Positions 6,042 through 37,693 of a stretch of 64,000 bases of DNA are shown piece after piece. Position 1 is the first letter of the stretch; every line of letters begins with the position of its first letter. The DNA is from Candidatus Poribacteria bacterium. Its GTDB lineage: Bacteria; Poribacteria; WGA-4E; PCPOR2b. Where the stretch lies: positions 2,688,001 to 2,752,000 of the forward strand of contig OZ220744.1 in the NCBI GenBank assembly GCA_965116925.1. The letters run 5' to 3'. The notes beneath the pieces were generated by a model, which worked only from the letters and a program-made list of their open reading frames with translations, had not been told where the DNA came from and did no database searches. Both the position numbers and the translations under genes were made by a program.

Positions 6042-6812
6042 ATGGAGAGAACTGTGCTGATTCATAATCCGAAAGGTCATTATCATTTTCTTAAGGGTAT
6101 CGATCCGTATTCCTGCGGTGTTATCGCTGATTCCGGTTATGAGATCGTCAATGTTACATTGAAACATTCCATCCCATGGCGTGAGGGATTTACGCGCATT
6201 GATGCGTATTTGAGGTCCCAGGGGTGTAAACGGACAGCGTTGTGTGCGATGCAACTCCGTAGTCCGGCACCTTTCACTATGGAGGGGTTCATTGATTTTA
6301 ATCGCGGTTACTGCGAAGTTTTGCAGGAGTGGGGGCTTTATGTAGAAGAACTCAATCCGTTGGCACGCACAAATGTGGCACCGTTGGTAGAGCCACCGGC
6401 AGTCCCGATGCTTTACGGCTTTTCGTATGTGCGTCCTTGCGATAATGCAGCGCAATCGACCTTTATCATTGCTGGTGCCGGTGAACTTTTGGAGGCGGCG
6501 TTGAACTCCGAAGGGATTGTTCGATGGGGGGAAACCGGTAGTGATGCGATACGAGAGAAGGCGACTTATGTTGTCGAAGTGATGGAGGAAAGGCTCTTGG
6601 GGTTGGGCGGAACTTGGGAGGCGGTCAATCGGATCAATATCTATACCGTGCATCCGATCAGCGGTCTCGTCGAAGATATTGTGCTGCCGAAGCTAGTCGC
6701 GGGTAGAGGGCACGGCATCCACTGGTATCCCTCCCGTCCACCGATTGTGGATATAGAATACGAGATGGATATGCGGGGGGTAGTGCAAGAGTTATACGTT
6801 GATTTCAGTTGA
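6042..6812 (+). CDS. CnbZ-like (2-amino-5-chloromuconate deaminase-like) protein
   Basis: YSCGV, ALCAMQLRSPAPFT..GF..FN, NPLARTNVAP, RPPI..IEYEMD match the family as recalled. Confidence 0.65.
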   Translation: MERTVLIHNPKGHYHFLKGIDPYSCGVIADSGYEIVNVTLKHSIPWREGFTRIDAYLRSQGCKRTALCAMQLRSPAPFTMEGFIDFNRGYCEVLQEWGLYVEELNPLARTNVAPLVEPPAVPMLYGFSYVRPCDNAAQSTFIIAGAGELLEAALNSEGIVRWGETGSDAIREKATYVVEVMEERLLGLGGTWEAVNRINIYTVHPISGLVEDIVLPKLVAGRGHGIHWYPSRPPIVDIEYEMDMRGVVQELYVDFS

Positions 6813-6945
6813 ATGCTCCTTTCTACAGATTTCAATAGTGTAGTAATTAAGAGCAATTCATGTAAAGCTTATTTAGGACGGATCAGGTCATTTCTTACCC
6901 ATTACGTTTTACGTATTATTTTCTACCGATTTCAAAGGAGAATCC

Positions 6946-7989: not shown

Positions 7990-8205
7990 GCAAAAGAGCA
8001 GGCGAGGCTGGTAAATCAGAGCCGTGAAACGAATGTCTCTTAATCCAATAGAATGTCCCTAGGAGTGGGGGAGTCCATCTGTTTAGGGGTTCATTCGGTA
8101 CTGCCGGGGGACAGGGTGTAATTACCCCCAAGAACTAGACAGTTGACTAAGGTGGATTTTCGCGACGGCGCAGCGAAGGGCACCTATTACACTTATGCCC
8201 TGCTG

Positions 8206-8976
8206 CTACCACTGCCACTGTTTGGGACGCCACAGATGCGCTTCTTGGACGCCTAACTCTTCCAAGATCGGATCGAGCTCCGACAGTTCTCCGAGCTCTT
8301 CAGCATTATGTGCGTCGCTACCAATAAGCAGCTTCACTTCCCGTTCCAAGCACAACTGGTAAAACTCAATTAAGTGCCGCTGATTGTACCGGATAAACTT
8401 CGGGCTGATCTCAATGGCAATTTCGCGTTGAGAGGCGAGGTCTAACTGGTGAATCAGCCGTTTCTGATCGATATACCGCATCATCTCACTCCCGAATGCT
8501 GAAACCTCCTCGTTCGACAAACGAAAGACATTCGGTATCAAAACAAATGGATGCGCGATAGCATCGGTCAACGGACAAGCGATCGCGGCTTCAAACATGT
8601 AGAGCTCATGGTTTGCAACTCTTCTTGGATTACCGAGATCTGAGGGGAGCGCGACCCCACGCAGATGGTAATGGTTGGGTGCCATCAAAACATAATCAAA
8701 GTATGATGCCAGTTGGATATTGACGGAAGCAACTCGGTATTCTAAGATGTGTGCTTCAACGCCAAAGTGGATAGGAATTGGCGATTCACATTTCTGGATA
8801 ATTTTTCTGACCGCTTCAATGTTCTTGGTTTTATAGCCATACGCATAATCGTGATCGGTGATACCAATTTCCTTTATTCCACGTTCTTGTTGGACTTTAA
8901 TAATTTTCTTTAGATCGAAATCCCTAGCGGCGCAGGGGGAAAGTCTAGTATGTATGTGATAATCACAGTTGAACAT
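8206..8976 (-). CDS. PHP-domain phosphoesterase
   Basis: DYHIHT, GITDH, AHP, GSDAH. Confidence 0.85.
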   Translation of the reverse strand: MFNCDYHIHTRLSPCAARDFDLKKIIKVQQERGIKEIGITDHDYAYGYKTKNIEAVRKIIQKCESPIPIHFGVEAHILEYRVASVNIQLASYFDYVLMAPNHYHLRGVALPSDLGNPRRVANHELYMFEAAIACPLTDAIAHPFVLIPNVFRLSNEEVSAFGSEMMRYIDQKRLIHQLDLASQREIAIEISPKFIRYNQRHLIEFYQLCLEREVKLLIGSDAHNAEELGELSELDPILEELGVQEAHLWRPKQWQW

Positions 8977-9127
8977 GCTTTCGACTCCTTCAGTGAAGAC
9001 AACCCCAATACATCGGAGGAGTAAGGTATGATTGCAAACAGTTATTTATTGGATCTAACGTTGGAATTGCCGTATCATTCCGATATTATGACAGATACTG
9101 AAAATGATTGCAAGCAAAAAAGATAAG

Positions 9128-9285
9128 GGCTCACGTCAAAAGAAGATGCAGAACGCTAAGAACGTGAAACGCGATGCGTGAAACGTAAAAACAAACTCTG
9201 TGTTTACTGGTTCATTAGTACATGGGTTCATTAATAAACGAGTGAACTTAATCGGTTTAGGTTGCGCCATTTCTTTACATGAGCC
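9128..9285. mobile_element. MITE with GGCTCA(C/T)GT..ACATGAGCC ends and a heptamer-repeat interior
   Basis: Same terminal inverted repeats as 46229-46360 and 57928-58058; flanks AAGATAAG/AAGATGTA only partly match. Confidence 0.6.
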
Positions 9286-9290
9286 AAGAT

Positions 9291-9346
9291 GTAGGTCGAT
9301 TTTCCAAAATCGACGTTGGGGTGTCGAGATATGAATCTCGACCTAC
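9291..9346. repeat. Inverted REP doublet
   Basis: GTAG-GTCGATTTTCCAAAATCGAC ... GTCGAGATATGAATCTCGAC-CTAC. Confidence 0.8.
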
Positions 9347-9398
9347 AATAGACTCCCATTCCTGACAGACGCTCCTCCCCTATTTTCACGTTTCTTTT

Positions 9399-10394
9399 CT
9401 AGAGCGGTAGGTCTATTGAACACCCCTGATCGGCGGACATATAAAACGCCTGCATCAGTTCAGTGAGGTTGCGACCGTCCTGAATCGTGATGTGCATCGG
9501 CTCATCGCGCAGAATGCCGTTGATCCACTGCTGCATCGCTGAGGGTGGCGGTTCAGGGCACTGCGCGATGTATTCCCCTTTTTCTTCGTCCGAGAGTTTG
9601 CGCGTTTCAAAGTGCATATCGCCGTGGTCGAGAACAATCGAACCTTCCGTTCCGTAGAGTTCGAGCATATTGGGACCAGAGCGGTGGGCCCACGAAACAT
9701 CAATCACCCCAAGTGCCTTGTTCGCAAACTCGACTACCGAGACGCTGTTGTCGTCAATTGGATAGTTGCCCGTGAAGTTGTTAATCTTGGAGATGGTGCT
9801 CTTCGGTTCGCCCATGAGCCAACGGATGATGTCCACCCGATGACAACCGAGATCAAACAAAGCACCGCCGCCAGCCCGCTTTGCATCCCCAAACCAGAGG
9901 CTGGGACCTGTGAACCATTTATCCAATCCCGCCGAGTGTGCAACACGCCCACGTCCGAAGGTGAGATCACCCAAGAGACCGTCATCAAGGGCTTTCTTCG
10001 CAAATACCAGATCGGGGTTACACCGTGATGGCAGCGAGATCATGAATTTTACCCCTGCCCCCTCTACGGCTTCGATGATTTGGTCGCATTCATCGACGGT
10101 GATGGCGAGGGCTTTTTCGGTGAAGATATGTTTGCCCGCTTCCGCCGCCGCAATCATCACTCTGGGGTGATCTGAGGTTATAGCGTTGACGACAACGGCG
10201 TCGATGTCATCTTGAGCGAGAACTTGGTCGAGATCCGAATAGAATGGGACGTTATATTCTTCAGCAGCCTGCTTGCCGCCGTATTCCTCTTCGTCCCAAA
10301 CGGCGGCCAATTCGGTTTCTGGGTTTTCCAGAATCTGGTTGGCATAGCCTCTCGCGTGAACGTGGGCGAAACTGAGTTTGGCGATTTTAATCAT
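9399..10394 (-). CDS. Gfo/Idh/MocA oxidoreductase
   Basis: GKHIFTEKA, GGGALFDLGCH, ELYGTEG. Confidence 0.9.
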   Translation of the reverse strand: MIKIAKLSFAHVHARGYANQILENPETELAAVWDEEEYGGKQAAEEYNVPFYSDLDQVLAQDDIDAVVVNAITSDHPRVMIAAAEAGKHIFTEKALAITVDECDQIIEAVEGAGVKFMISLPSRCNPDLVFAKKALDDGLLGDLTFGRGRVAHSAGLDKWFTGPSLWFGDAKRAGGGALFDLGCHRVDIIRWLMGEPKSTISKINNFTGNYPIDDNSVSVVEFANKALGVIDVSWAHRSGPNMLELYGTEGSIVLDHGDMHFETRKLSDEEKGEYIAQCPEPPPSAMQQWINGILRDEPMHITIQDGRNLTELMQAFYMSADQGCSIDLPL

Positions 10395-11623: not shown

Positions 11624-12418
11624 CTACTGTCGAGTTCGACGAAGTTCATCCTTAATACGGTTGCAGAGACTCAGGTCCCCCGCTTCTTCCGCGTATTGTA
11701 ACGACTGCTCTAAATCCTTGCGTCCCTGCGAGTGATGCCCTAAGTCTCGCTTCGCCAACCCCCGATAGAAGTAGGCCCAAGCATTATCGGGGTCAAGTCG
11801 GAGTGCTTCGTCACAATCGGTAATCGCGGCAAAATGTTCGCCTAATTCGTATTTCAGCCACCCTCGAACTCGATATTTATCGTCATGGTCAGGGTTAAGT
11901 TGAATGCCTTTGTCGGCATCGGCAATTGCCGCAGCGTGCTGTCCTGCACTAAACTTCACCATACCCCGGTTACTGTAAAAAGAACCAACATCGGGATCGA
12001 GGCTAATCGCCTTGTCATAATCAGCAATTGCAGCAGCATGATGGTTTAACCTATGTTTTGACCATCCCCGGTTGGAGTACGCATGGGCATAATTGGGATC
12101 AAGGCTAATTGCTTTGTCATAATCAACAATTGCAGCGGCGTGTTGGTTTAATTGAGCTTTTGCAATGCCCCGATAGTAGTAAGGTCTGGCATTAGTCGAA
12201 TCGTCCTTTATCGCCAGATCATAGTGGCTTATCGCTTCAAAGTATAGACGTTTTCCTGCAGATACTCTTCCCTCGTCAAGATGGGATAGGGTGAAGTTGA
12301 ATTGGCGATCGGTGAATGGGTTTTCACTTGGGGTATGAGAAGTATCGTAAAGCAGTCCAAGAATTATCGTTACTATCATTGCCACAGCGAGGAGAATAGG
12401 AACCATGCGGTCTTTCAT
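11624..12418 (-). CDS. Membrane-anchored TPR-repeat protein
   Basis: N-terminal hydrophobic helix; repeated AAAI.DYDKAI.LDP..A.AY.NRG units. Confidence 0.9.
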   Translation of the reverse strand: MKDRMVPILLAVAMIVTIILGLLYDTSHTPSENPFTDRQFNFTLSHLDEGRVSAGKRLYFEAISHYDLAIKDDSTNARPYYYRGIAKAQLNQHAAAIVDYDKAISLDPNYAHAYSNRGWSKHRLNHHAAAIADYDKAISLDPDVGSFYSNRGMVKFSAGQHAAAIADADKGIQLNPDHDDKYRVRGWLKYELGEHFAAITDCDEALRLDPDNAWAYFYRGLAKRDLGHHSQGRKDLEQSLQYAEEAGDLSLCNRIKDELRRTRQ

Positions 12419-12461
12419 TTCGGTTTTCCCTTCCCGTATTTATACCGTTTGAACAGCTCGA

Positions 12462-12959
12462 CTAATCGTGGGTCCACGTTATCTGTTTTGCTTCGTTGGA
12501 ATCACTGTAGAAACCAATCCCCGCTGCCGATGATTTCTCGTAGACTATTAACTCATTCCGCTCTGGGTAGGCGTGGATCTTAAACGCATCTCGCTTCAGC
12601 GGATCGGTGATGAACATAAGATTCATGATTGGAGCAGAAGTTAGTCCAATCATCGCTTCACCCTTGTGATTGTGAACTAAGATACCATTATAATCGCCAG
12701 CAGAATTCAGCGTGACTGCTTCCTTACCATCTGTATTAAAGAGAACGATTTGATTGTGGCGCGTGAAACGAGTAGCATTCAAAACAATTGCGTCTTTCCC
12801 TGCTGTATCAACGACTGTCAGTTTCCGACAGGTAATCTCATTAAACACTCCATTACTCTGTGCCTCGATGTCTGGTGTGATAAACTGTCCGATAGTAATA
12901 CCGACTGCCATAATCCCTGCACCTAAAAGGATATATCCGAGTTTCTGTTTGTGATTCAT
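12462..12959 (-). CDS. Hypothetical secreted protein
   Basis: Signal/TM segment then EAQ..GVF.EITCRKL.VVD; AAGGA RBS. Confidence 0.65.
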   Translation of the reverse strand: MNHKQKLGYILLGAGIMAVGITIGQFITPDIEAQSNGVFNEITCRKLTVVDTAGKDAIVLNATRFTRHNQIVLFNTDGKEAVTLNSAGDYNGILVHNHKGEAMIGLTSAPIMNLMFITDPLKRDAFKIHAYPERNELIVYEKSSAAGIGFYSDSNEAKQITWTHD

Positions 12960-13045
12960 TATCATTTCCTTTCGCTTGTAAGTGGACTTTACCTTTGATA
13001 ACTGCAATCATCACTTCTTGACAAAACCTGCACCGAATCCTGACC

Positions 13046-13134
13046 GTAGGAACGAGATTTCCTCGCTCGATGGTTTGGGAAACCCAACCCCTAGAAAAGT
13101 TGACCCAGTGTAGGAGCAACCCTTGTGGTTGCCC
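13046..13134. repeat. Cluster of degenerate GTAG REP hairpins
   Basis: GTAGGAACGAGATTTCCTCGCTC, GGTTTGGGAAACCCAACCCCTA, GTAGGAGCAACCCTTGTGGTTGCCC. Confidence 0.7.
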
Positions 13135-13149
13135 AAAATACTTTCCGTA

Positions 13150-13365
13150 TCAGTCTTTCCGGTTGTAGCATTTCTCAAGCCGCTCCATATAGAGTTTATG
13201 GAATTCTTCCTCATTTAGATCTGGAAATCTTTTTCGCAAGCCGTGGATGAACAGTTTCTTGCTAAACTTGGATAGCTCAAATGCTTTCATCAACCGTTGT
13301 TCTGGCGTCATGCGCCGCAGGATCTCAATATATTGTTTATGATTGGGACATTCTTTGATGTTCAT
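13150..13365 (-). CDS. Small hypothetical protein, antitoxin/accessory-like
   Basis: 71 aa, ILRRMTPEQRLMKAFELS..GLRKRFPDL pattern. Confidence 0.6.
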   Translation of the reverse strand: MNIKECPNHKQYIEILRRMTPEQRLMKAFELSKFSKKLFIHGLRKRFPDLNEEEFHKLYMERLEKCYNRKD

Positions 13366-13379
13366 ATTCCGTCACACCG

Positions 13380-14327
13380 TTATTCCTGTGAAGTTCCTCC
13401 GTTAGAAGCCGTAGGACTCGTAACCTCCAGAAATAGATCCGCTAACCCGTATTCAACTCTCTGAAAACGTGAAACCGCAACATCTCCACAGACCAAATCT
13501 TTCAGTAAGTTGGCAGTTTCCGTCTCCGTCATCTGTGATTCAATCTGGATGCGTGCATCCATAATTTGTGTAGATATTACATCCGATCTCGTCTCCAGAA
13601 TCGCTTGGGCTGCCTCCATGCCCGATGCGACTTCAATCTCCAGTCGATGCCGATTACCATACCGCTCAGAAATGTCGCGCATCTCTCCGTAAAATGCCAA
13701 GTGTCCCCCACTCAAAATGCCAACACGGTTGCATGGGGTTATCGCATCGGTCAGGTTGTTTGTCGCTAGAATCACCGTTTTTCCCATCGCTCCTAGTTCT
13801 TGGATTAATGCGCCCATCTCGGCTTGCCCCTGCGGATCTAAGAGCGCGACGGGGGCGTCAATCAACCAGACGGACGGATCGTGCAAGAAGGTTTTGGCTA
13901 AACACAATCGCTGTTTCTGTCCCAGTGATAGGTGTTCGATCTTCTCATCTCGCAACCTCGCCAGATCCATCAGATCCAGAACGTCTTGGATGCCTGTCGT
14001 ACGTTGTCCCTTTTCTATTTTATATGCCGCAGCAAAAAACTCCAGATATTCCTGAATAGAGAGGTTAGGATACCCCTCAAAGGTTTCGGGAATATAGCCG
14101 ATGAGTGGGCGGACAGCACGAATGTCCTTCGTTGCGTCGTATCCAGCAAGCTCTATAGAACCGGAGGTCGGCTTAATCAGCGTTGCTAGAATCTTTATGA
14201 GCAGCGTCTTGCCTGAACCGTTTGGGCCCAACAACGCCATACGATCCCCAGCGTCCAAATGAAAATTCAGATCGGTGAGAATCGGTTTCTGCTGAAAAGA
14301 TTTGCACAACTCTTGGACGTGAATCAC
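13380..14327 (-). CDS. ABC transporter ATP-binding protein with degenerate Walker B/H-loop
   Basis: GPNGSGKT, LSLGQ; DAP in place of DEP; start GTG inferred from GGAG. Confidence 0.8.
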   Translation of the reverse strand: MIHVQELCKSFQQKPILTDLNFHLDAGDRMALLGPNGSGKTLLIKILATLIKPTSGSIELAGYDATKDIRAVRPLIGYIPETFEGYPNLSIQEYLEFFAAAYKIEKGQRTTGIQDVLDLMDLARLRDEKIEHLSLGQKQRLCLAKTFLHDPSVWLIDAPVALLDPQGQAEMGALIQELGAMGKTVILATNNLTDAITPCNRVGILSGGHLAFYGEMRDISERYGNRHRLEIEVASGMEAAQAILETRSDVISTQIMDARIQIESQMTETETANLLKDLVCGDVAVSRFQRVEYGLADLFLEVTSPTASNGGTSQE

Positions 14328-18571: not shown

Positions 18572-18637
18572 ATGGATTATGAGAGACCAGACTTAAGAAG
18601 GGTTACATGGGTTGGGAATTCTAAGACAAAGTTGAAA
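18572..18637 (+). pseudogene. N-terminal fragment of a RelE/HigB (Gp49-like) toxin
   Basis: MDYERPDLRRVTWVGNSKTKLK resembles the ..V.W.G.S...L start of these toxins, then runs into an unrelated ORF. Confidence 0.4.
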
Positions 18638-18649
18638 GGGAGATACATC

Positions 18650-18913
18650 GTGTCAATTACAACAAAGGAATGGGTACTTGATACGGTTGCAAAACTACCA
18701 AACCCTGAGATGGGAGAACTGAAACAGTACTTGGAATATCTGATCTGGAAATCACAAAGGCCGAAAGGAAAGGGGCAACCCACACAGGTCCTAGAAGCTA
18801 TTAATAAATCGCATGACGTGACGATGGAAGATGCTCTGGCTCTGCTTGAGTCAATTAAAGAGGGGAAAACTCCCATACGATTTGATCCCCCCTTTGATGA
18901 GATTGTCCGATAA
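18650..18913 (+). CDS. DUF2281-like antitoxin
   Basis: GGAG-GTG start; KLP..E..EL..YLEYL pattern; directly upstream of a PIN remnant. Confidence 0.5.
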   Translation: MSITTKEWVLDTVAKLPNPEMGELKQYLEYLIWKSQRPKGKGQPTQVLEAINKSHDVTMEDALALLESIKEGKTPIRFDPPFDEIVR

Positions 18914-19028
18914 CGATCTTTGGATAGCTGCCACTGCTATGACACTCAATGCAATTCTTGTGACTTCTGATTTAGACTTTCAGAGAATTACCGGATTCGG
19001 ATTACGACTTGAGGATTGGACAAGGTGA
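18897..19028 (+). pseudogene. C-terminal fragment of a VapC/PIN toxin
   Basis: SDNDLWIAATA..LVTSD.DF.RI..L..EDW; N-terminal catalytic half absent. Confidence 0.75.
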
Positions 19029-19527: not shown

Positions 19528-20397
19528 ATGAAAACAGTTGGTTTTTTCGTTAATACATCCAAACCTCACGCGCTGCAGGTTGCCACGGAGGCTTGCGGTT
19601 GGCTCAGAAAGCACGGGGTAAAGCCGCTCGTTCCCGATGCGGAAGCTGCGCTACTCGGTCTGGCAGGTGCGGGCTGTAATCGGCGTGAATTGGCTGCACA
19701 GTGTGATCTGTTATTGGTCCTCGGCGGTGACGGCACCCTTCTTGACGCTGCACATATACCCGACATCGAGAATGTCCCTATCCTCGCTGCGAATCTCGGT
19801 AGCCTCGGTTTCCTCACGGATGTTCCCCGCGACCAACTTTACGCTGCATTGACCAACGTTTTTAATGGCGATTACAAAATTGATCGGCGGATGATGTTAG
19901 AGGTCAGCGTCGATAACCATGAACAGGAGTTTGCCAATTCGTTTGCACTCAACGATGTTGTGATTCGCCACTATACGCAACTCATTGAACTGGAATCCTA
20001 CATTGACGGCGAACCATTCGTTACCTACAATGCTGACGGACTGATTATCGCTACATCAAGTGGCTCAACCGCCTATTCCTTAGCGTGCGGGGGACCCATC
20101 GTTGAACCGCATCTCAACGCAATTCTCTTGACACCGATTTCGCCGCATTCATTAACGATGCGCCCTTTTATTGCACATGGGGATTCAGAGATTACTGTCG
20201 TTATGCAATCCGATTATAGCAGTGTTACCCTGCTTGTCGATGGGGCCCGTGAGACACACACGGTTGCTCCCAATTCCTTAATTCGTGTGCGTAAAGCGGA
20301 TAAGACAATCCAGCTGATTCGTTCTCATCACCATAGCAATTATGAGGTCTTGCAGACGAAATTAATGTTGGGCGAGGGAACGAAGCGAAAAACGTGA
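19528..20397 (+). CDS. nadK: NAD kinase
   Basis: LGGDGTLL, NLGSLGFL, ALND, DGLIIAT.SGSTAYSL..GGP. Confidence 0.95.
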   Translation: MKTVGFFVNTSKPHALQVATEACGWLRKHGVKPLVPDAEAALLGLAGAGCNRRELAAQCDLLLVLGGDGTLLDAAHIPDIENVPILAANLGSLGFLTDVPRDQLYAALTNVFNGDYKIDRRMMLEVSVDNHEQEFANSFALNDVVIRHYTQLIELESYIDGEPFVTYNADGLIIATSSGSTAYSLACGGPIVEPHLNAILLTPISPHSLTMRPFIAHGDSEITVVMQSDYSSVTLLVDGARETHTVAPNSLIRVRKADKTIQLIRSHHHSNYEVLQTKLMLGEGTKRKT

Positions 20398-20430
20398 TTG
20401 GTTCATTATTGGAAAAGGATATTGCTTGCT

Positions 20431-20595
20431 ATGGAACGAAAAACTGAAGCTGAAGATGGAGTGAAAACAGAGCGACGCAAAGCGTGGGAGGTTTTTATCG
20501 CTAACAATCGCGAGAGGGAGATATATGTTGATCGGGAGATCGATATTTCCCGGCTATGCGATGAAATGAACGATATGGAAAAAGGAATAGAGTAG
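20431..20595 (+). CDS. Small hypothetical, antitoxin-like protein
   Basis: 54-aa charged ORF ending DREIDISRLCDEMND. Confidence 0.4.
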   Translation: MERKTEAEDGVKTERRKAWEVFIANNREREIYVDREIDISRLCDEMNDMEKGIE

Positions 20596-20680
20596 TAGGC
20601 ATACTCCGTATGCCGTAACCGTTATGCAAATTACGGCACCCCAGCATCACCTGAAACTTGATTGTAATCATCATTACGAA

Positions 20681-20779
20681 CTGGAATGCGCCAAGCGAGC
20701 GGTGGAAATCGCGATTGAGCAGGACGAACAAACCGCGATTGACTATCTGGAAAGAGAAACGCAGGAGGTAACCGGATGA
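20681..20779 (+). pseudogene. C-terminal remnant resembling a restriction-modification specificity (HsdS-like) subunit
   Basis: LECAKRAVEIAIEQDEQTAIDYLERETQEVTG*; its TGA overlaps the ATG of the next gene (ATGA). Confidence 0.55.
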
Positions 20780-22080
20780 ACATCACCCAATTCACAATGG
20801 AGGAGGTACGCTGCTTTGCGGAACGGCAAGAGTTCAACATTCGCCCCCTGACGTTTTTGGTCGGAGAAAACAGTACCGGCAAGACCACAGCCTTGGGGTG
20901 TTTCCAAATATTAACTAATTATTTGAATGGTTTGGGAATAGATTTTAATTCACCTCCCTATTCAATGGGAACCTTTAGGGATATTGTCAGAAACAGCAAA
21001 AAAAAAGAAAAAGCGTTTACGCTTGGGTTTACCTTTAAAAACAAGAATGAAAATGTCGAATGTACCGTTGAATTTGTCGAAAGGAAGAGAGGGGTTGAAC
21101 CTGTCGCTAAGTTAGTAACGGTCAAATTCGCTGATGGCGAAATTGTTTTAAGTACTAATGATACGAGGGAAGTGGATAAACTTGCCTCTTTTGATAAAGA
21201 ACGGAATCAATATCGTCTGGATGTGGATTTTGCTGCTTTGAATGTCAGGCCTCCACTCTCCCTTTTAAGGCCTTTTAGTCATAAACAGGAGGGACAATCT
21301 GAAAACGAAAGGGCCTTAACGGACTATCTAGCGAAAAAGGATGAAGATACTGGAAGAAGCAGATACCAATTACGGGATATCTGGGACCCCACGTCCGTAT
21401 TTAGTAGTTCGCCTATTCGTTCGGAACCGAAACGGACCTATGATCCGACAAGGTTCTTTTACAACCCGGAAGGGGGCGACGTGCCAATGCTGTTAATGCG
21501 AATACAAGCAACTGACAAGAAGAGGTGGGAAGCCTTGAAAGCGCAGTTGGTCGAATTTGGCAAGCGTTCGGAACTGTTTCAGAACATAGAAATAAAACAA
21601 CTTGGACGGTCTTTGGGGTCCCCATTCCAACTGAAGTTTAAGGTCAGGGGACCAAGTTCCAATATCACCGATGTTGGTTACGGTGTCAGTCAAATTTTGC
21701 CAATTTTGGTGTATATTTTAGATCCCGATATTTCTGGAAATCAGATAGATTTTTACTTATTACAACAGCCTGAAGTCCATCTGCATCCGAGGGCGCAGGC
21801 AGAACTATCTTCTCTACTAGCAACATTGGCAAGCGAGGGTAATCGGACCTTTATCGTTGAAACACACAGCGACTATATGATTGATCGAGCGCGCATCGAA
21901 ATTAGAAAAGGTAATATCCGCCCTGAAGATGTGTCGTTGATATATTTGGAGCCAAAAGGGCGGGTTGTCAAGGCACATAACATCAGTTTTGATAAAATGA
22001 GTAATATGGAGGGGGTACCTCCTCATTACAGAGAATTTTTCATGACAGAATACCGCCATCTTATGGGTTTTGAGGATTGA
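20776..22080 (+). CDS. ABC/AAA_21-type ATPase with DUF3696-like tail
   Basis: GENSTGKT Walker A, VGYGVSQILP signature, LLQQPEVHLHP Walker B region, IVETHS H-loop. Confidence 0.9.
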   Translation: MNITQFTMEEVRCFAERQEFNIRPLTFLVGENSTGKTTALGCFQILTNYLNGLGIDFNSPPYSMGTFRDIVRNSKKKEKAFTLGFTFKNKNENVECTVEFVERKRGVEPVAKLVTVKFADGEIVLSTNDTREVDKLASFDKERNQYRLDVDFAALNVRPPLSLLRPFSHKQEGQSENERALTDYLAKKDEDTGRSRYQLRDIWDPTSVFSSSPIRSEPKRTYDPTRFFYNPEGGDVPMLLMRIQATDKKRWEALKAQLVEFGKRSELFQNIEIKQLGRSLGSPFQLKFKVRGPSSNITDVGYGVSQILPILVYILDPDISGNQIDFYLLQQPEVHLHPRAQAELSSLLATLASEGNRTFIVETHSDYMIDRARIEIRKGNIRPEDVSLIYLEPKGRVVKAHNISFDKMSNMEGVPPHYREFFMTEYRHLMGFED

Positions 22081-22511
22081 TTATGTGTATTATTGTGGAT
22101 GCCAATATGTTTAGTGCGTTTAGGGACCCCACCGATGAGAATATGGAACCTGTGTGGAATTGGTTAAGAAAAAAGAATGGCAAGATAGCTTACTCAAGCA
22201 CAGAGAAATTTGAAGAGGAATGGGAAAGAGGGGGAGTAACCGATTTGATAAAGCTATTAAGACAAGCTGAACAACTGAAAGAGATACCTCCCCCAAAGGT
22301 GGAAGCAAAAGAGAATGAGCTCAACCGAGAAAGAGCAATTAGGTCAAATGACCCGCATATTATCGCATTAGCCATTGTAGCAGATGTGAAAGTATTGATT
22401 TCCAATGACAGAAGATTACACGAAGACTTTAAAAATCGTAATCTGGTCGGCGGCAAGGTATACCAGACAAAAAGCCATTCGCGTCTGCTGCGTAACGATA
22501 CCTGTCTTTAG
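22077..22511 (+). CDS. PIN-domain protein
   Basis: IIVDAN, SNDPHIIALA, LISND..L..DF; overlaps the ATPase stop. Confidence 0.8.
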   Translation: MIMCIIVDANMFSAFRDPTDENMEPVWNWLRKKNGKIAYSSTEKFEEEWERGGVTDLIKLLRQAEQLKEIPPPKVEAKENELNRERAIRSNDPHIIALAIVADVKVLISNDRRLHEDFKNRNLVGGKVYQTKSHSRLLRNDTCL

Positions 22512-22778
22512 TAGGGAACAACGATCGTTATTATCTGCAATCAACAATAAGAATCCCAACGATAAGATAAAACGTAACTGTTTGTAACTGTTTGTAATAC
22601 GATTGAAGGTCTATGACAAAACGTTTCATGCTGAAATAGGGACAATTTTCCCATTTGCGCGGGAAAATTGGGAAAATTTGATTTTCGCACGGAAAACGTA
22701 ACCTTTTTAATCTCATTTATGCTACCTTAACACCTCATCTTTTAACTGCGTAAGTCCTACAAGAAATTAAAAGTTGCC

Positions 22779-24494
22779 ATGATTGAAGAACTGTACATAA
22801 GCAATGTTGCCCTTATTGATGAGCTTCAGTTGGAGTGTTCCTCCGGTCTGAATGTTTTCACGGGGGAGACGGGTGCGGGTAAATCGGTGATCTTAAACGC
22901 TGTGGGGCTTGCGCTCGGTGAACGTAGTAACGCTGGGCTTGTCAGAGATGGGGCGAGGAATGCCAAGATTCAGATCGCGGTTGCACTGCCCCCGGACCAT
23001 CCCGTGTGGGACGGTTTTAACGATTCCGAATTTGCTGACACTTTAGAGGCAGAGGAAACGTTGATTTTATCCCGACAGATTAATGCAAGCGGACGCAGTC
23101 GTTGCCACACCAATGGACAGTTGGTGAGCTTGACATTCTTGAGTGCAATCGGCGATCTGCTCGTCGATATTCACGGGCAGCATGCACACCAATCGCTCTT
23201 CCGGTCTGAAACCCACCTGGATCTCGTTGATACGTTCGGCAGGCATGAATCACTGAAGGCGGCAGTCGGTAAAAAGTACGACGAACTCCACGCCGCCCAA
23301 GCACAACTGGCTGATTATTCTCAAACACTTCGTGAGGCGATGCAGGAGAAGGATCTGTTAGAGTTTCAACTAGAAGAACTAGAGGATGCCCAACTCCAAG
23401 AGGGAGAGGAGGAGGAACTTGTCAACGAACGGCATCTCCTCAGCAATGCAGAAACCCTCTTTGAATCAGCCAATCAACTCTACGAGGAGCTTTATGGCGG
23501 CGACCTATCGGAATCTTCGACGCTAGACGGGCTCAAGATAGCGAGCCGTACGCTTTCTAAACTCTACGAATTAGATGGCAGCCTGTCAGAATTGAACGAG
23601 CGTTTCGAGTCCGCCCTGTACGAGTTGGAGGACATCGTCTATCAGATCCGCGATTATCGTGATAAAATTGAGTTTAATCCGCACCGCCTTTCAGAAGTTG
23701 AGGAACGGCTAGACCTCATCCATCGACTCAAGCGGAAGTACGGTGATTCAATCTCCGAGATTTTAGCCTACCAAGCGCAAGCCTCGCAGAAACTTGAGGA
23801 ACTTCAATTCGGTTCCGAGCGCATTGAAGAGTTGAAGGATCAGATTCACCTTGTGACAGAGCAAGCTCAGGAACTTGCGATTGAACTTTCCGAGAAACGG
23901 AGAGCGACTGCGACCCAACTTGAATCTCTAATCGAGCGTGAACTCCAGACGCTGGGAATGGAAAAAGCGGCTTTCCAGATCCTTGTGTCCCCTATAGAGT
24001 CCACCGAGGGCCCCTTGGAGATAGAGGGGCAACGGTATGAACTACGGACTGACGGGATGGATGAGATTGAATTCCTCATCTCTCCCAACGTTGGATCCGA
24101 ACCGAAGCCGTTGGCGAAAATAGCGTCGGGGGGGGAAATCTCTCGCGTGATGTTGGCATTGAAAACGGTGCTTGCCCAAGTCGATCTGATTCCGACGATG
24201 ATCTTTGACGAAATCGATGCAGGTATTGGTGGACGCACCGCGGATATCGTCGGCCGGAAACTAAAGGAACTGTCACGTTTTCGTCAAGTCTTTTGTATCA
24301 CGCATCTGCCGCAGATTGCGCGTTTCGCAGACCAGCATTTTCGGGTTGAAAAAGATGAGGACGGAAATCGCACAACGATCACGGCAAAACTCCTGACACC
24401 GGAAGAGCGGGTTGAGGAGGTAGCTCGGATGCACGGCGGCGAAGCGACAGTAACGACGCTCGCCCATGCGAGGGAGCTGTTGGAGGGACAATAG
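22779..24494 (+). CDS. recN: DNA repair protein RecN
   Basis: TGETGAGKS, IHGQH, IASGGE.SR, FDEID, CITHLPQIA. Confidence 0.97.
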   Translation: MIEELYISNVALIDELQLECSSGLNVFTGETGAGKSVILNAVGLALGERSNAGLVRDGARNAKIQIAVALPPDHPVWDGFNDSEFADTLEAEETLILSRQINASGRSRCHTNGQLVSLTFLSAIGDLLVDIHGQHAHQSLFRSETHLDLVDTFGRHESLKAAVGKKYDELHAAQAQLADYSQTLREAMQEKDLLEFQLEELEDAQLQEGEEEELVNERHLLSNAETLFESANQLYEELYGGDLSESSTLDGLKIASRTLSKLYELDGSLSELNERFESALYELEDIVYQIRDYRDKIEFNPHRLSEVEERLDLIHRLKRKYGDSISEILAYQAQASQKLEELQFGSERIEELKDQIHLVTEQAQELAIELSEKRRATATQLESLIERELQTLGMEKAAFQILVSPIESTEGPLEIEGQRYELRTDGMDEIEFLISPNVGSEPKPLAKIASGGEISRVMLALKTVLAQVDLIPTMIFDEIDAGIGGRTADIVGRKLKELSRFRQVFCITHLPQIARFADQHFRVEKDEDGNRTTITAKLLTPEERVEEVARMHGGEATVTTLAHARELLEGQ

Positions 24495-32649: not shown

Positions 32650-35085
32650 CTACTTGAGGATGACCATCCGCCGTAATGCAGTGTAATCACCCGCATGGAT
32701 TTGATAGAAATAGATGCCGCTCGCGACGGATTCTCCACTGTCGTTACGACCGTCCCAATAGGCTGCGTTTGCTCTATTTGTGTAATCCCCTGGGGATTGA
32801 TATCCTAGATCCAATTGACGCACCGGCCCCCCTTTTGTATCATAAATGGTGAGGGTTACATTGGCGGTATGGGCGAGGCGATACGGTATCCATGTTTCGG
32901 GATTGAACGGATTGGGGTAGTTTGGGAGGAGTGCGGTTTCGGCGGGAGTGAGTATAGCTAACAGTGTTTCGAGATTAGCGATACCGCGCCGGAAGGTGAG
33001 CGAGCCGTCATCTGCTATGTGTGCTATATCAATCCATTTCTGAACCGTTTTAGAAGTGATGGGAATACCCATCGGTGTAGAGAAAAACGATTGGTGCCCT
33101 TTAAGGACTACGGGTGCTGCAGGAGTTGCTGTTTCATCAAGGTATGCGCTGACGGCAACCAAATCAAGGATGTTAACGATGCCATCGCCGTTGACATCTC
33201 CCGATAGCTCTTTCCCTGTTTGTCCAAAGCGTTCTGCGACTGTAGCCAAATCAAGTAGATTTACGGCACCGTCTCGGTTGACATCATAGATGGATACCTG
33301 TATCGGTGTCCCTGTTAGAGGTGCGAGGTTCCACAAGAGTACTGTACCATCCTCACTCCCGCTTGCGAGTGTGTAACCGTCCGGACTAAATGTCACACTC
33401 AAGATAGAGTTTGTGTGTCCCGTGAAGGTAGCTTTGTGTTGTCCTGTGGCAACATCCCACAGCCGTACCGTGTTATCTGGTCGACCTGCACCACTTGCGA
33501 GCGTGGTGCCATCGGAACTGAATGCGACACTACTAACCCAACGCGTGTGACCCACGAGGGTGGCTGTGAGCTGTTTTGTTGGAACCTCCCATAGCTGTAT
33601 CGAACCCTCCCTACTCCAATCCCATATCCCACAAGCGAGTATCCTACCATCTGGACTGAACGCGACACTGCCGACGCGGCCCCTCTGCCCCATGAGGGTA
33701 GCTGTGTGCTGTCCTGTAGTAACCTCCCACAAATGCACCGTGTTGTCCTTGCTTCCACTTGCCAATATAGCTCCATCTGGACTGAATGCTACGCTTAAAA
33801 TCGCGTCTCCGTGCCCGGTGAGGGTGGTTTGGAGCTGCCCTGTGGCAGCGTTCCACAATCGCACCGTGTCATCCTCATCCCCGCTGGCGAGTATAGTACC
33901 ATCTGGACTGAATGCTACACTATTGACAACGTCTGTATGTTCCGGGAGAGTGACTGTGAGTTGACCTGTGGCAACATTCCACAGCCGCACCGTGTCGTCA
34001 CGGCCTCCACTTGCGAGTGTGGTGCCGTCCGGATGGAACGCTACACTGTTGACTCCGTCCGCATGGCCTGCGAGGGTGGCTTTATGTCTTCCTGCCTCTA
34101 CCTCCCACAGTCGTATCCTGCCGTCTAGCCAACCTCCCCCAGCCACCAACGTGGCACCATCTGGACTGAACGCGACACTGCTGACACGGTGCGTATGCTC
34201 TCTGAGGATGGTTCTCGGTTTCCACGTATCTACATCACGCAGCCATACCGTGTTGTCTTGACTTGCAGTTGCCAACGTGGTGCCGTCCGGACTGAACAGG
34301 ACAGTGTTGATAAAGTCCGCATGCCCTGCGAGAGTCGTTTTGAGTTGTTTTGTGGCAACATCCCACAGTCGTACTATGCTCTCCGACGCACTTCCCGTGG
34401 TTGCCAGCGTTGTACCATCCGGACGGAATGCTACATTTGAAACTGAACCTATATGACCCGTGGGAATGGCTATGGACTGACCTGTGGCAAGATCCCACAA
34501 CCTCACTGTCTGATCGTAACTCCCACTTGCTAATGTGTTACCATCCGGACTGAACGCAACACTCCTGATAGCGTCTGTATGCCCCGTGAGGGTGGCTATG
34601 GACAGACCTGTGGCAACATCCCACAACCGCACTGTCTTGTCACTAGCTCCACTTGCGAGCATCGTGCCATCCGGACTAAACGCTACGCTATAGATATGGT
34701 CGGTATGCCCCGTGAGGGTGGCTTTGAGCTGCATTGTAGCAACGTCCCAGATTTGCACTGTGCTATCTTTTCCAGCCGAACTCTCTGCTATGCTTGCGAG
34801 TATCGTACCATCTGGACTGAGTGCGACGCTCGAAACTCCTATAAGGAGGTCAAGTGCTGTGCCAGTATCGGTATCGTAGATCCATGTCCCAATAGAGCTT
34901 GCAACCGCCAAACGATTCCCATCGGGGAAATACGCTATCTTTCCAGTGATCCAACCCTGTCCCAAACGCCCTTTGGCACCATCGGGTAAACTCCATGTGG
35001 TGTAGTTTTGAGCATAGGTATTTGGTAGGAATGCAAGTACTCCGAAGGAGAGGAGCATGAGTATAGAAAATTGTGCTGTTTTCAT
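32650..35085 (-). CDS. Secreted WD40-repeat protein with dockerin-like and FlgD-like C-terminal domains (type A)
   Basis: Signal peptide; many GH..V.SVAFSPDG..LAS...D.TVRLWD repeats; DVN.DG.VN.LDL x2; NYPNPFNPETWIPY. Confidence 0.93.
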   Translation of the reverse strand: MKTAQFSILMLLSFGVLAFLPNTYAQNYTTWSLPDGAKGRLGQGWITGKIAYFPDGNRLAVASSIGTWIYDTDTGTALDLLIGVSSVALSPDGTILASIAESSAGKDSTVQIWDVATMQLKATLTGHTDHIYSVAFSPDGTMLASGASDKTVRLWDVATGLSIATLTGHTDAIRSVAFSPDGNTLASGSYDQTVRLWDLATGQSIAIPTGHIGSVSNVAFRPDGTTLATTGSASESIVRLWDVATKQLKTTLAGHADFINTVLFSPDGTTLATASQDNTVWLRDVDTWKPRTILREHTHRVSSVAFSPDGATLVAGGGWLDGRIRLWEVEAGRHKATLAGHADGVNSVAFHPDGTTLASGGRDDTVRLWNVATGQLTVTLPEHTDVVNSVAFSPDGTILASGDEDDTVRLWNAATGQLQTTLTGHGDAILSVAFSPDGAILASGSKDNTVHLWEVTTGQHTATLMGQRGRVGSVAFSPDGRILACGIWDWSREGSIQLWEVPTKQLTATLVGHTRWVSSVAFSSDGTTLASGAGRPDNTVRLWDVATGQHKATFTGHTNSILSVTFSPDGYTLASGSEDGTVLLWNLAPLTGTPIQVSIYDVNRDGAVNLLDLATVAERFGQTGKELSGDVNGDGIVNILDLVAVSAYLDETATPAAPVVLKGHQSFFSTPMGIPITSKTVQKWIDIAHIADDGSLTFRRGIANLETLLAILTPAETALLPNYPNPFNPETWIPYRLAHTANVTLTIYDTKGGPVRQLDLGYQSPGDYTNRANAAYWDGRNDSGESVASGIYFYQIHAGDYTALRRMVILK

Positions 35086-35122
35086 CAGTTAGATTCCTCC
35101 CTATAGATTACGGGTGTCGATC

Positions 35123-37657
35123 CTACTTCAAAATAAGCATCTTACGCGTTGCGGAGTAATTCCCTGCGGACAGACTGTAGAAGTAAACGCCGCTTGCGAC
35201 CGGCTCTCCCGTCTCTGCTCTACCGTCCCAATAGGCTGCCTTTGCGCGATCCGTGTAATACCCCGCGGACTGGTGTCCCAGATCCAACCGACGCACCGGC
35301 ACGCCTTTTGTGTCATAAATCGTGAGGGTTACGTCGGCGGCGTGGGCGAGCTGGTACGGAATCCATGTCTCAGGATTAAATGGATTGGGATAGTTGGACA
35401 ACAAATTGGAGACTCTCGGAACGGAGACAAGCTCTTGCGATGGCAGTGCCGCTAGGAGTTGTTCAAGAACGGGAATGCCGCGCTGATAGATGAGCGAACC
35501 GTCATCTGCTGCGTGAGCCATATTGATCCACCCCTGAATCGTATCTCGGTTGAGATTTAATAGGTTCCGTTTCTTTCCTTTATCAGGGAACAGAAATGCG
35601 GTTGGCGCAGTGGGAATCATCGTTTCGCTAAACACGGCAGCAACCTTGACAAGATCGAGAATATCAACAACACCATCTCCGTTGACATCGGCATCATTCT
35701 GCCCTGTTTGTCCCAGGTTTGATCCCACGAACATCAAATCCAAAATATTCACCATATCATCGTGGTTGACATCTCCGGGTTTCGTTCTAGGGGTGAACTC
35801 CCATAGGAGCACTGTGCCGTCATAACTCCCACTTGCGAGCAAGGTGCCAGCCGGATTAAACACGACACTCCGGACACTGACCGTATGCCCTATAAAGGTG
35901 GCTTGAAGTCGCCCGGTGGCAACGTCCCATAGTCGCACCATTTTATCCCGTCCCCCACTTGCGAGTGTCCGACCATCCGGGCTGAACGCGATACTAGCGA
36001 CATCGTAGGTGTTTCCTGCAAGAGTCGCTTTGAGTTGCCCGGTGGCAACGTCCCACAGTCCCACCGTTTTGTCTTGGCTTCCACTTGCTATCATGGTGCC
36101 ATCTGGACTGAACGCTATATCCCAGATAAAGGGTCTATACCCCATGAGCGTAGTTTTGAGTTGCCCCGTGACAGGATTCCACAACCGGATTGTATTCTCT
36201 GTGCTCCCAGCTGCGAGAATGGTGCCATCTGGGCTAAACGCTACGCTCGTGATAGTCGCTATTCCCCATGTAAAAGTGGCGCGCTGCTGCCCGGTGGGGA
36301 CATCCCAAAGGCGCAACGTCCTATCCCAGTGTCCATTTGCCGTAGCAAGCGTGTTGCCATCGGGACTGAACGCTACACTGTTGATACCATACGTATGCCC
36401 GATGAAGATGGTTTTGAGTTGCCCGGTGGCGACGTCCCACAGCCGTGCTGTGTAGTCTACACTTCCACTCGCAAGTGTGTTTCCATCCGGACTGAACGCT
36501 ATCGTCCGAACAGTGTCTGTATGTCCCTTGAGGATACCTTTGGGGTTCCATGTCGCAGTATCCCATAGCTGCACTACATTGCCGCTCCCACCTGCGAGTG
36601 TAGTACCATCTGGACTAAACACTATATTTGAACTGCTACTCTTATGCTCTGCGAAGATAGCTTTGAATTGCCCTGCGGCAACATCCCACAGTTTTATCAC
36701 CCCGCCACTTCCGGTTGCGAGTGTGCTACCATCCGGACTGAACGCTAGACTTTCAGGCCCACCCATGTGCCCTGTAAGGGTGGCTTTCAATTCCCCCGTG
36801 GTTACATCCCACAGTCGTATCGTATCGTCGCGCCAACCGCCCCCACTCGCCAGCGTGTTTCCATCCGGGCTAAATGCAATACTATCGACACTGCCCACAT
36901 GTCCAGTGAGGGTGGCTTTATGTTGTCCTGTCTGCATATCCCACAGCCGCACTGTCTCGTCAACACTTCCGGTTGCGAGTGTGTTTCCATCTGGACTGAA
37001 CGCGGCACTATAGACGCTTTCCTTATGCCCCGTAAGGGTGGCCTTTAACGCTCCTGTGGTTGCAGTCCACAGCCGCACTGTCTTGTCACTACTTCCAGTT
37101 GCGAGTGTGGTGCCGTCCGGGCTAAATGCGACACCATAGACACCGCGTGTATGCCCAGTGAAGGTGGCTTTGTGTTGTCCTGTCCGCGCATTCCATAGCC
37201 GTACTGTCTTGTCACCACTCCCACTTGCGAGTGTGGTGCTATCCGGACTAAAGGCCATATCTGAGATACCGCTTGTATGTCCTGTGAGAGCGGCTTTGAT
37301 CTCCCATGTTGCAACATCCCATAAGCGTATTGTTCTGTCACTCCATCTGCCCCCACTCGCCAGCGTGTTGCCATCGGGACTGAACGCTAAACTCTCGATC
37401 TGCGTCGTATGCCCCGTGAGCAGCTCCAGTTCTGCCCCGGTGTGTACATCGTATATCCAAACCCCGATAGAAGCCCCCACTGCCAAGACTTTCCCGTCCG
37501 GCGAATACGCTATATCATATATCCCGCCTTTACCGAGGCGCACCTTGGCTCCTGTGGGTAGATGCCATTGAGGCGAATCTTGGGCGTAAATATTCGATAA
37601 GAACACGAACGTTCCCAAAGAGAGAAGCAAGAATATGGAAAATTGTGCTGTTTTCAT
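35123..37657 (-). CDS. Secreted WD40-repeat/dockerin/FlgD-tail protein (type B)
   Basis: Same architecture; QDSPQWHLP start, EFTP..KPGDVNHD linker. Confidence 0.93.
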   Translation of the reverse strand: MKTAQFSIFLLLSLGTFVFLSNIYAQDSPQWHLPTGAKVRLGKGGIYDIAYSPDGKVLAVGASIGVWIYDVHTGAELELLTGHTTQIESLAFSPDGNTLASGGRWSDRTIRLWDVATWEIKAALTGHTSGISDMAFSPDSTTLASGSGDKTVRLWNARTGQHKATFTGHTRGVYGVAFSPDGTTLATGSSDKTVRLWTATTGALKATLTGHKESVYSAAFSPDGNTLATGSVDETVRLWDMQTGQHKATLTGHVGSVDSIAFSPDGNTLASGGGWRDDTIRLWDVTTGELKATLTGHMGGPESLAFSPDGSTLATGSGGVIKLWDVAAGQFKAIFAEHKSSSSNIVFSPDGTTLAGGSGNVVQLWDTATWNPKGILKGHTDTVRTIAFSPDGNTLASGSVDYTARLWDVATGQLKTIFIGHTYGINSVAFSPDGNTLATANGHWDRTLRLWDVPTGQQRATFTWGIATITSVAFSPDGTILAAGSTENTIRLWNPVTGQLKTTLMGYRPFIWDIAFSPDGTMIASGSQDKTVGLWDVATGQLKATLAGNTYDVASIAFSPDGRTLASGGRDKMVRLWDVATGRLQATFIGHTVSVRSVVFNPAGTLLASGSYDGTVLLWEFTPRTKPGDVNHDDMVNILDLMFVGSNLGQTGQNDADVNGDGVVDILDLVKVAAVFSETMIPTAPTAFLFPDKGKKRNLLNLNRDTIQGWINMAHAADDGSLIYQRGIPVLEQLLAALPSQELVSVPRVSNLLSNYPNPFNPETWIPYQLAHAADVTLTIYDTKGVPVRRLDLGHQSAGYYTDRAKAAYWDGRAETGEPVASGVYFYSLSAGNYSATRKMLILK

Positions 37658-37693
37658 TAGTCTAATTCCTCCACATAGATTACGGTGCCAATC

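Follow-up and report, generated by a model that had tools for sequence, protein, structure and literature searches.

An ABC-ATPase/PIN-nuclease gene pair in a Poribacterial genome: a candidate anti-phage module that outlived a restriction-modification island

The analyses presented here concern a stretch of 64,000 nt from a Candidatus Poribacteria genome (contig OZ220744.1, positions 2,688,001 to 2,752,000; 'the window', within which coordinates are given unless a related locus is named), and in particular two adjacent genes between nadK and recN that encode an ABC ATPase and a small PIN-domain protein (together 'the pair'). We consider it probable, at about 0.6, that this locus is an ABC-ATPase/PIN-nuclease anti-phage module, with an ATPase of the DUF3696/NsnB type and the architecture of HEC-03 (Hma-embedded candidate 3), which has outlived a restriction-modification (RM) island. 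Comparison with related loci indicates that the pair is the only intact survivor of a small RM island between nadK and recN, and shows, as far as sequence can, that both genes are intact, tightly coupled, under purifying selection and conserved as a pair.

Deletion stubs at the nadK–recN site

A profile search of genomes with an alignment of the ATPase returned 382 related stretches, and the best 80 were kept as loci, numbered L001 onwards. The features of the site in the window are as follows.

19528–20397, + strand: nadK, confirmed by Pfam
20464–20595, + strand: 3' stub of a nuclease-methyltransferase (RM) gene, inside the 65-codon open reading frame (ORF) 20398–20595
20596–20680, + strand: spacer between the former RM gene and the S gene, aligned to the spacer 5' of hsdS in L002 and L004
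20681–20779, + strand: 3' stub of an HsdS-like specificity (S) gene, 32 codons and a stop, holding the ATPase Shine–Dalgarno sequence AGGAGG and the ATGA overlap
20776–22080, + strand: ABC ATPase, probably of the DUF3696/NsnB clade, 434 aa (Pfam AAA_15/AAA_21; PADLOC NsnB, PDC-M55A and HEC-03 models)
22083–22511, + strand: predicted PIN-domain nuclease, 142 aa if read from the conserved ATG and 144 aa if read from the TTG at 22077 (weak Pfam PIN match and structural model)
22512–22778, no strand: AT-rich spacer between the PIN gene and recN, G+C content 0.352, the right edge of the island by composition
22779–24494, + strand: recN, confirmed by Pfam

A preliminary description of this DNA had noted an AT-richer two-gene insert between nadK and recN, and all of its elements are in place: the G+C content of the pair is 0.425 versus 0.501 for the window, a value equally low in 0.6% of windows of the same size. 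The ORFs concerned are 20776–22080 (434 aa), 22077–22511 (144 aa, with a TTG start) and 20624–20779 (51 aa), the last of which ends in a 32-residue tail whose stop codon overlaps the ATPase ATG as ATGA. This overlap had been described correctly; the tail had also been described as absent from the ORF list, but it does show up as a short ORF when the length cut-off is lowered to 30 aa.

The same description had likened the tail to the C-terminus of HsdS-like subunits and proposed a homology check, and the likeness is borne out by full-length S genes in related loci. The tail corresponds in alignments to the final 32 codons of ORFs of 465–487 aa, and the stub at 20681–20779 matches the terminal 95 nt of the S genes that are intact in L001 and L002 (87–94% amino-acid identity). 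The cluster formed by these S genes carries Pfam Methylase_S in the scanned members from L002, L003, L004, L007 and L020 and reaches up to 118 bits with PADLOC Specificity_I (scanned member L020); the S gene of L001, scanned with Pfam, gave no match at E ≤ 1e-4, and that of L062 lay outside the Pfam scan. On its own, the tail gives a marginal match to the C-terminal end of two Specificity_I profiles (E 8e-4 and 2.5e-3). A tblastn search of plasmids with the 62-residue tail frame returned only non-significant matches (S subunit, E 0.9; methylase, E 4), and an NCBIfam search with the ATPase, the PIN protein and the tail returned nothing useful.

The second stub belongs to the gene that precedes the S gene in related loci. 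By blastn, L002 8346–8560 matches window 20464–20680 at 87% identity and covers the end of a 788-aa gene (L002 6111–8477); by tblastn, residues 16–65 of ORF 20398–20595 are 72% identical to the corresponding C-terminus in L002, and residues 18–65 are 83% identical to L004. The cluster of these RM genes (651–788 aa) combines Pfam HSDR_N_2, N6_Mtase and Eco57I (scanned members from L062, L001 and L007) and scores 941 bits with PADLOC MTase_I (L062), the full-length genes of L002 and L004 being annotated through these other cluster members. Two segments of L002 are absent from the window by blastn, 6106–8345 (2240 bp) and 8561–9906 (1346 bp, nearly the entire S gene). Homology breaks at 20680/20681, and the coordinate 20681 at which the preliminary description had started the element is the deletion junction within one base; window 20682–22511 then corresponds to the final 95 nt of the S gene in L002 and the ATPase and PIN genes that follow it, and homology to L002 and L004 picks up again at about 22760–22768, in recN (blastn). 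The alignments thus show the tail and the 65-codon ORF to be stubs from two deletions, one in the S gene and one in the nuclease-methyltransferase gene, and the proposal that RM genes were deleted around a retained ATPase–PIN pair is upheld, L002 holding intact methyltransferase (M) and S genes where the window holds only stubs.

The nadK–recN site, together with the context of a 1184-aa gene, is common to the window and to L002, L004 and L020 (Poribacteria), and is known in four states. L002 has the order nadK, 788-aa gene, 471-aa gene with its stop overlapping the ATPase start, ATPase, PIN and recN; L004 has an M gene, a DUF5677 gene, an S gene, a 209-aa ORF and the pair; L020 has an S gene, two ORFs and the pair, without a full-length RM gene between nadK and the S gene; and the window has stubs and the pair. 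A search of the island edges for an Rfam family, a tRNA or a flanking repeat found none.

The lost RM system appears to have had two genes, one fusing an HSDR_N_2 nuclease-like domain to an N6 methyltransferase and the other encoding S, because no REase_I (HsdR) match was found among the PADLOC-scanned neighbours of L001–L004, L007, L020 and L062 (about 6.5 kb upstream and 5 kb downstream; the set comprised cluster representatives, singletons only if at least 100 aa long and close to the pair, and four more distant ORFs, each 600 aa or longer, from L001, L002, L007 and L006). At the nadK–recN site only M and S genes lie between the flanking genes besides the pair, and M itself carries HSDR_N_2. 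From this domain architecture we infer a BcgI-like type IIB organization; the classical type I locus envisaged earlier is replaced by the two-gene M and S arrangement of the related loci, in which no separate HsdR was found.

The AGGAGG at 20763–20768 lies 7 nt 5' of the ATPase ATG and within the hsdS stub, which may well persist because the translation-initiation region of the ATPase lies in it. Remnant copies of the stub elsewhere decay: the copy in L006 has an in-frame stop, and the second copy in L004 has diverged and ends before the ATPase. We therefore argue against the tail as a hidden, coupled functional component, as which it had been presented, and regard it as probably a decaying pseudogene stub.

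The ATPase, the PIN protein and their conservation as a pair

The ATPase matches Pfam AAA_15 (1.3e-22) and AAA_21 (1e-16) and, among PADLOC models, NsnB (1.5e-40, 138 bits, residues 3–418) and PDC-M55A (3.8e-38, 130 bits), with weaker matches to the HEC-03 ATPase model (2.4e-22, 77.6 bits) and to AriA (90 bits, residues 264–369 only). Pfam DUF3696 is not reported for it at E ≤ 0.1; its nearest plasmid relatives, at 21–25% identity, are annotated DUF3696. Among 8000 candidates scored, 6861 fall at E ≤ 0.001, the best 120 of them being 63–99% identical, and clustering at 50% identity leaves 1209 representatives of the family at E ≤ 1e-30. All of 80 diverse members match the NsnB, PDC-M55A and HEC-03 models (best 4.8e-48, 3.7e-45 and 1.5e-32), and none reaches family level in PADLOC. 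Plasmids gave no ATPase match at E ≤ 1e-20 and, at E ≤ 1e-5, only distant DUF3696/AAA proteins, and phage records gave only partial matches (24–30%). The Foldseek matches of the ATPase model are the ABC heads of Rad50, SMC, RecN and PtuA, and the ATPase profile, run against solved structures, finds only OLD and PtuA, in part.

Within the ATPase we recognize a Walker A motif (GENSTGKTT), a Walker B motif (LLQQPE), a signature-like GYGVSQ and an H-loop (ETHS). The replacement of the Walker B acidic pair by QQ, pointed out in the preliminary description, is present, and the idea that it might be a local oddity does not hold. Among 31 close homologues neither Q330 nor Q331 varies; over 80 diverse homologues the same holds for Q330, and Q331 is conserved to at least 90%; and within an alignment of 151 sequences 141 have QQPE and five have QE, with the Walker A lysine in 142 of 142 ungapped sequences and the H-loop histidine in 147 of 147. 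Judged from these alignments, the QQ Walker B is a family hallmark, which rules against decay. Moreover, because the two positions are QQ here, EQ in HEC-03 and EN in the NsnB of Menshen, a degenerate Walker B appears to be a trait of the whole DUF3696-type clade, including a system reported to be experimentally active.

The downstream protein gives only a weak Pfam PIN match (3.9e-4, below the gathering cutoff), and its profile finds no sequence match among solved structures. Its predicted structure has a local confidence (pLDDT) of 91.6 and a predicted template modelling score (pTM) of 0.87, and the best matches of this model in the PDB are all VapC/PIN proteins (probability 0.96–1.0, template modelling score 0.45–0.61, E-values from 2e-3 to 5e-2 with none at or below 1e-3); at the level of modelled structure, the confident prediction and the all-VapC/PIN matches confirm the PIN identity. 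The acidic residues D8, E48, D92, D111 and D117 (numbered from the TTG start at 22077) are kept in 65, 65, 64, 65 and 66, respectively, of 66 homologues. M3 is nearly invariant in the same set and GAGGA stands at 22072–22076; the conserved start is most likely the ATG at 22083, 2 nt past the ATPase stop. The overlap of the ATPase and PIN genes described earlier therefore applies to the ORF read from TTG 22077 and not to the conserved start. The protein also matches the N-terminal 139 of the 501 positions of the PDC-M11A model (7.9e-6) and falls among 'PIN domain-containing' and hypothetical clusters in the ESM Atlas; longer fused PIN forms were sought and none was found, which is weak evidence.

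The pair is conserved as a unit. As labelled, the best 80 loci include 65 from Poribacteria, 10 from Latescibacterota, two from Caldilineaceae and one from Owenweeksia, Poribacteria and Latescibacterota being sponge-symbiont lineages, and ATPase identity across them is 58–71% (best tblastn segment). In 79 of the 80 the ATPase gene is directly followed by PIN-homologous sequence, and the remaining one is on a contig that ends at the ATPase; the PIN gene is intact as an ORF of 125–190 aa in 64 loci and is split or truncated in several others. The ratio of non-synonymous to synonymous substitution rates (dN/dS), from six comparisons of the window with relatives per gene and averaged over lineages, is 0.18–0.29 for the ATPase and 0.13–0.32 for the PIN gene. 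At L072 10001–13557 the pair is duplicated in tandem (439 aa and 143 aa, then 439 aa and 139 aa), the second PIN being 48% identical to that of the window, and a 903-aa ORF with a weak type III restriction-enzyme-like match follows.

As a side observation, the synonymous divergence (dS) of the window PIN gene from those of L004 and L001 is 0.34 and 0.47, and that of the ATPase gene 0.75 and 0.71, a contrast that hints at recombination within the module.

Genomic neighbourhoods and rival explanations

Around the 80 loci, 962 neighbouring ORFs formed 381 clusters; 205 of 208 chosen representatives were scanned with PADLOC, and cluster members were assumed to share the annotation of their representative. 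At least one defence-like neighbour occurs in about 32 of the 80 loci and an RM-type neighbour in about 19, namely the M and S system in seven loci, MmeI-type enzymes in three, other type IIG enzymes in three, lone methyltransferases in four, a type III-like enzyme in one and a classical type I system in L079. The last of these (L079 5801–16178) runs through a split MTase_I gene, a PDC-S11-like gene, a half-size S gene of 229 aa, the ATPase, the PIN gene, a 401-aa ORF and a 987-aa HsdR-like gene, and is an independent RM association, with an unrelated classical type I system, outside the clade of the window. That clade, provisional since it comes from a Biopython neighbour-joining tree without support values, unites the window with L001–L003, L006, L007, L020, L062 and L074, which have an hsdS tail or S gene, and leaves L004 outside. 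RM linkage thus appears to be a property of the window's clade plus the one independent case and not of the family as a whole: the RM association claimed earlier stands for that clade and for L079 and fails for the approximately 61 loci that lack an RM-type gene.

In 23 loci an ORF of about 125 aa, visibly hydrophobic and sometimes duplicated, lies 5' of the ATPase; considered as a third component, it was rejected, given that it has no Pfam or PADLOC match, varies in spacing and is absent from the window. In L075 (Caldilineaceae) a PD-T4-4_A-like ABC ATPase gene (361 bits) and a PDC-M47B-like gene stand directly 3' of the pair (11894–13928), which would place two ABC-ATPase systems side by side. 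In the window itself, at 18572–19028, a 113-aa ORF with a weak DUF2281 match is overlapped by a 65-aa ORF, 5' of nadK, that matches only the C-terminal end of the PIN/VapC profile (Pfam PIN 6.4e-6, positions 89–117 of 120) and looks like a truncated VapC-type toxin gene; and at 32650–40312, on the minus strand, three successive genes of 811, 844 and 872 aa consist nearly entirely of WD40 beta-propeller repeats.

A core of about 75 nt from the 3' end of hsdS is repeated in several loci. L003 has three copies (8127–8216, 9906–10001 and 11809–11886), one closing hsdS, one in front of the ATPase gene and one behind the PIN gene, and these bracket a trypsin-like/LmuA-like cassette and the ATPase–PIN cassette; a DUF3800 gene lies 3' of the third copy, which begins exactly where the window stub begins, and the M and S genes have a PD-T7-4-like gene between them. 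Two copies each occur in L004 (9064–9156 and 9884–9967) and L020 (8573–8662 and 9915–10001), and ORFs of 209, 166 and 256 aa without a family match are bracketed in the same way. That core copies bracket inserted genes suggests cassette exchange by recombination within the core, and it is conceivable, if rather doubtful, that the hsdS 3' core is a portable recombination junction by which the restriction loci of sponge symbionts capture, stack and shed defence cassettes, somewhat as integrons do. The ATPase–PIN pair would then be one such cassette with its own core copy and ribosome-binding site. A bolder corollary would be that the pair serves as a guard of the M/S complex, directed at anti-restriction proteins, and later gained autonomy.

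If the pair is a defence module, the following mechanism can be proposed by analogy with HEC-03, Menshen and PARIS as their published accounts describe them. The ATPase, in which Walker A and the H-loop are intact, would oligomerize and bind ATP; since the canonical acidic pair of Walker B is missing, it would probably hydrolyse ATP slowly or not at all and serve as a sensor or scaffold, not as a motor. It may keep the PIN protein inactive through its C-terminal region, as is predicted for NsnB and NsnC, until a phage-derived trigger releases or activates the PIN protein, which would then cleave RNA and so arrest growth or phage replication.

Several observations weigh against assigning the pair to defence. 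The case for that function draws on architecture and distant homology; the PIN protein has no match to the HEC-03 PIN model at E ≤ 0.1, and its hhalign alignment to a true HEC-03 PIN protein (E 0.055) spans 11 columns and the N-terminal DxN motif only. The AlphaFold model of the ATPase is of moderate confidence (pLDDT 69.6), and a sigma-70 promoter scan 5' of the ATPase found no site on the + strand, where Poribacterial promoters may differ. As to context, 48 of the 80 loci have no PADLOC-recognized neighbour; the commonest neighbours are non-defence genes, encoding a thiamine pyrophosphate (TPP) enzyme in 30 loci, a Laminin_G_3 protein in 24 and a VWA protein in 18; many copies occupy syntenic positions in the chromosome, as defence genes seldom do; and the neighbour counts are raw, without a background rate, so that no enrichment is claimed.

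Such positions next to metabolic genes, the high sequence identity of the ATPase over 80 loci from four taxonomic groups as labelled, and 382 genome matches with several copies per genome would all suit a housekeeping or symbiosis-related role in RNA processing in sponge symbionts, with no part in conflict. We hold this to be very unlikely, considering that the G+C content of the pair, in the lowest 0.6%, suggests a horizontal origin, that similar identity across Poribacteria, Latescibacterota, Caldilineaceae and Owenweeksia suggests transfer, that chromosomal contexts vary and include tandem and multiple copies, and that the recognizable relatives of the ATPase are all defence ATPases. It is less far-fetched, though still improbable in our estimate, that the pair is a toxin–antitoxin (TA)-like addiction module without a dedicated anti-phage role, in which the ATPase serves as a large antitoxin to a VapC-type PIN toxin and loss is lethal. 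An ATPase of 434 aa with nucleotide-binding motifs near-invariant in 151 sequences exceeds the needs of a simple antitoxin, Pfam found no DNA-binding antitoxin-like domain, and the architectural homologue HEC-03 is reported to have given phage defence that needed both genes (bioRxiv 10.1101/2024.01.29.577857). What makes an addiction module attractive is that the neutralizer-first, PIN-second order and tight coupling are like those of TA operons, that VapC toxins are the best fold matches of the PIN model, that the pair survives while adjoining RM genes decay, that many copies sit among ordinary genes, and that L072 has a tandem duplicate. TA behaviour and abortive infection are compatible, so that this explanation overlaps with an anti-phage module.

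A further alternative is a PrrC-like guard of restriction, in which the ATPase docks on the M/S complex and fires the PIN nuclease once a phage anti-restriction protein has disabled that complex, the copy in the window being orphaned and either unregulated or functionless. In L001, L002 and L062 the stop codon of the S gene overlaps the ATPase start as ATGA, and in L007 the two genes abut; however, a sulfatase ORF of 532–574 aa makes the same 4-nt overlap in eight Latescibacterota loci (L042, L043, L045, L056, L064, L065, L070 and L073, at about 8406–10003), and the overlap is therefore not specific to hsdS. Likewise, a guard would fit the position of the pair in L079 between the type I S gene and the HsdR gene of an unrelated classical system, the RM-type neighbour in about 19 of 80 loci, and the grouping of the window with most RM-linked loci (by neighbour-joining without support, L004 lying outside), whereas about 61 loci lack an RM-type gene over a distance of roughly 6 kb. 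The pair of the window is intact with all motifs kept despite the loss of its RM genes, although dN/dS values, as averages over lineages, are compatible with a recent release from constraint in the window. On balance, we think a guard quite unlikely, and favour the anti-phage module.

Should that module prove an active defence, it would represent a large new branch of the ABC-ATPase/effector defence superfamily that current detection models do not name: the 1209 cluster representatives and 382 genome matches have no dedicated model in PADLOC v2. The near-invariant QQ Walker B offers a natural way to ask whether, in this clade, an ATPase that binds ATP but lacks canonical hydrolysis can still control a nuclease effector, and the nadK–recN site, in its four decay states, gives a direct view of an embedded module outliving its restriction system.

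Comparison with known systems

The sensor-ATPase/nuclease-effector logic put forward in the preliminary description fits the closest known systems. PrrC and PARIS, like the pair as proposed here, have an ABC ATPase that controls an RNA-targeting nuclease. PrrC, which is part of a type I RM locus, consists of one polypeptide, and its nuclease domain is different from the PIN domain found here. PARIS differs in having a Toprim/DUF4435 effector, and its AriA models cover only residues 264–369 of our ATPase. Both systems are described as triggered by anti-restriction factors (bioRxiv 10.1101/2024.01.29.577857). The PIN fold and acidic residues resemble those of VapC toxins; VapBC, however, has a small DNA-binding antitoxin where the upstream partner here is the 434-aa ABC ATPase.

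The PADLOC candidate PDC-M55, which is untried, is matched through its component A nearly as well as NsnB is (130 bits), whereas the two components of a true locus (L082, Bacillus plasmid) score 267 bits (A) and 91 bits (B); the partner there is the 352-aa PDC-M55B, to which our PIN protein has no match. In the literature library searched for PDC-M55, no paper was found that mentions it.

Menshen (NsnA–NsnB–NsnC) supplies the best PADLOC match of the ATPase, NsnB at 138 bits, and, like the pair, has a PIN-fold partner directly downstream and a frequent association with RM loci. NsnB is described as having EN in Walker B and GxG in place of the SGG signature, and, by prediction, binds NsnC at its PIN-like domain via DUF3696 (PMC12065111); the degenerate Walker B and the GxG in place of SGG are common to NsnB and the ATPase studied here (PMC12065111). 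Differences are that no DUF262/NsnA match occurs among the neighbours in the window, that among the scanned neighbour representatives of the 80 loci an NsnA-like gene is found in one locus (L056), where a sulfatase gene splits it from the pair, and that our PIN protein is a single domain with its acidic residues kept, whereas NsnC is described as an inactive PIN domain with a C-terminal nuclease (PMC12065111).

HEC-03 comes closest in architecture, and with it the earlier statement that the pair was not recognized as a named system has to be revised, since HEC-03 too is an ABC ATPase with a PIN protein and the ATPase also matches the NsnB and PDC-M55A models; what stands is that no PADLOC model fits at family level. 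As reported in the preprint, HEC-03 was discovered embedded in other defence loci and was validated, both genes being needed for defence (bioRxiv 10.1101/2024.01.29.577857). In PADLOC-DB v2 the ATPase is named HEC-03B and the PIN protein HEC-03A, whereas the preprint uses the two letters the other way round. The true HEC-03 locus used for comparison, from an Aeromonas plasmid (L081), has the same order and coupling as the pair, an ABC ATPase gene of apparent DUF3696 type followed by a coupled small PIN gene; the two ATPases align end to end at 25% identity, and each has a degenerate Walker B (EQ in HEC-03, QQ here) followed by PE..HLHP. On the HEC-03 models the ATPase of the window scores 77.6 bits versus 445.3 for the true member, whose PIN protein scores 84 bits. 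In the same plasmid (L081 3941–6569) the gene after the true pair belongs to the RNA ligase family, AbiEii and Hok/Gef genes lie nearby, and a ligase beside a PIN RNase could hint at RNA repair. Taken together, these comparisons of sequence point to the pair as a divergent variant of a kind for which precedent exists, HEC-03-like in its architecture and with an ATPase of the NsnB clade.

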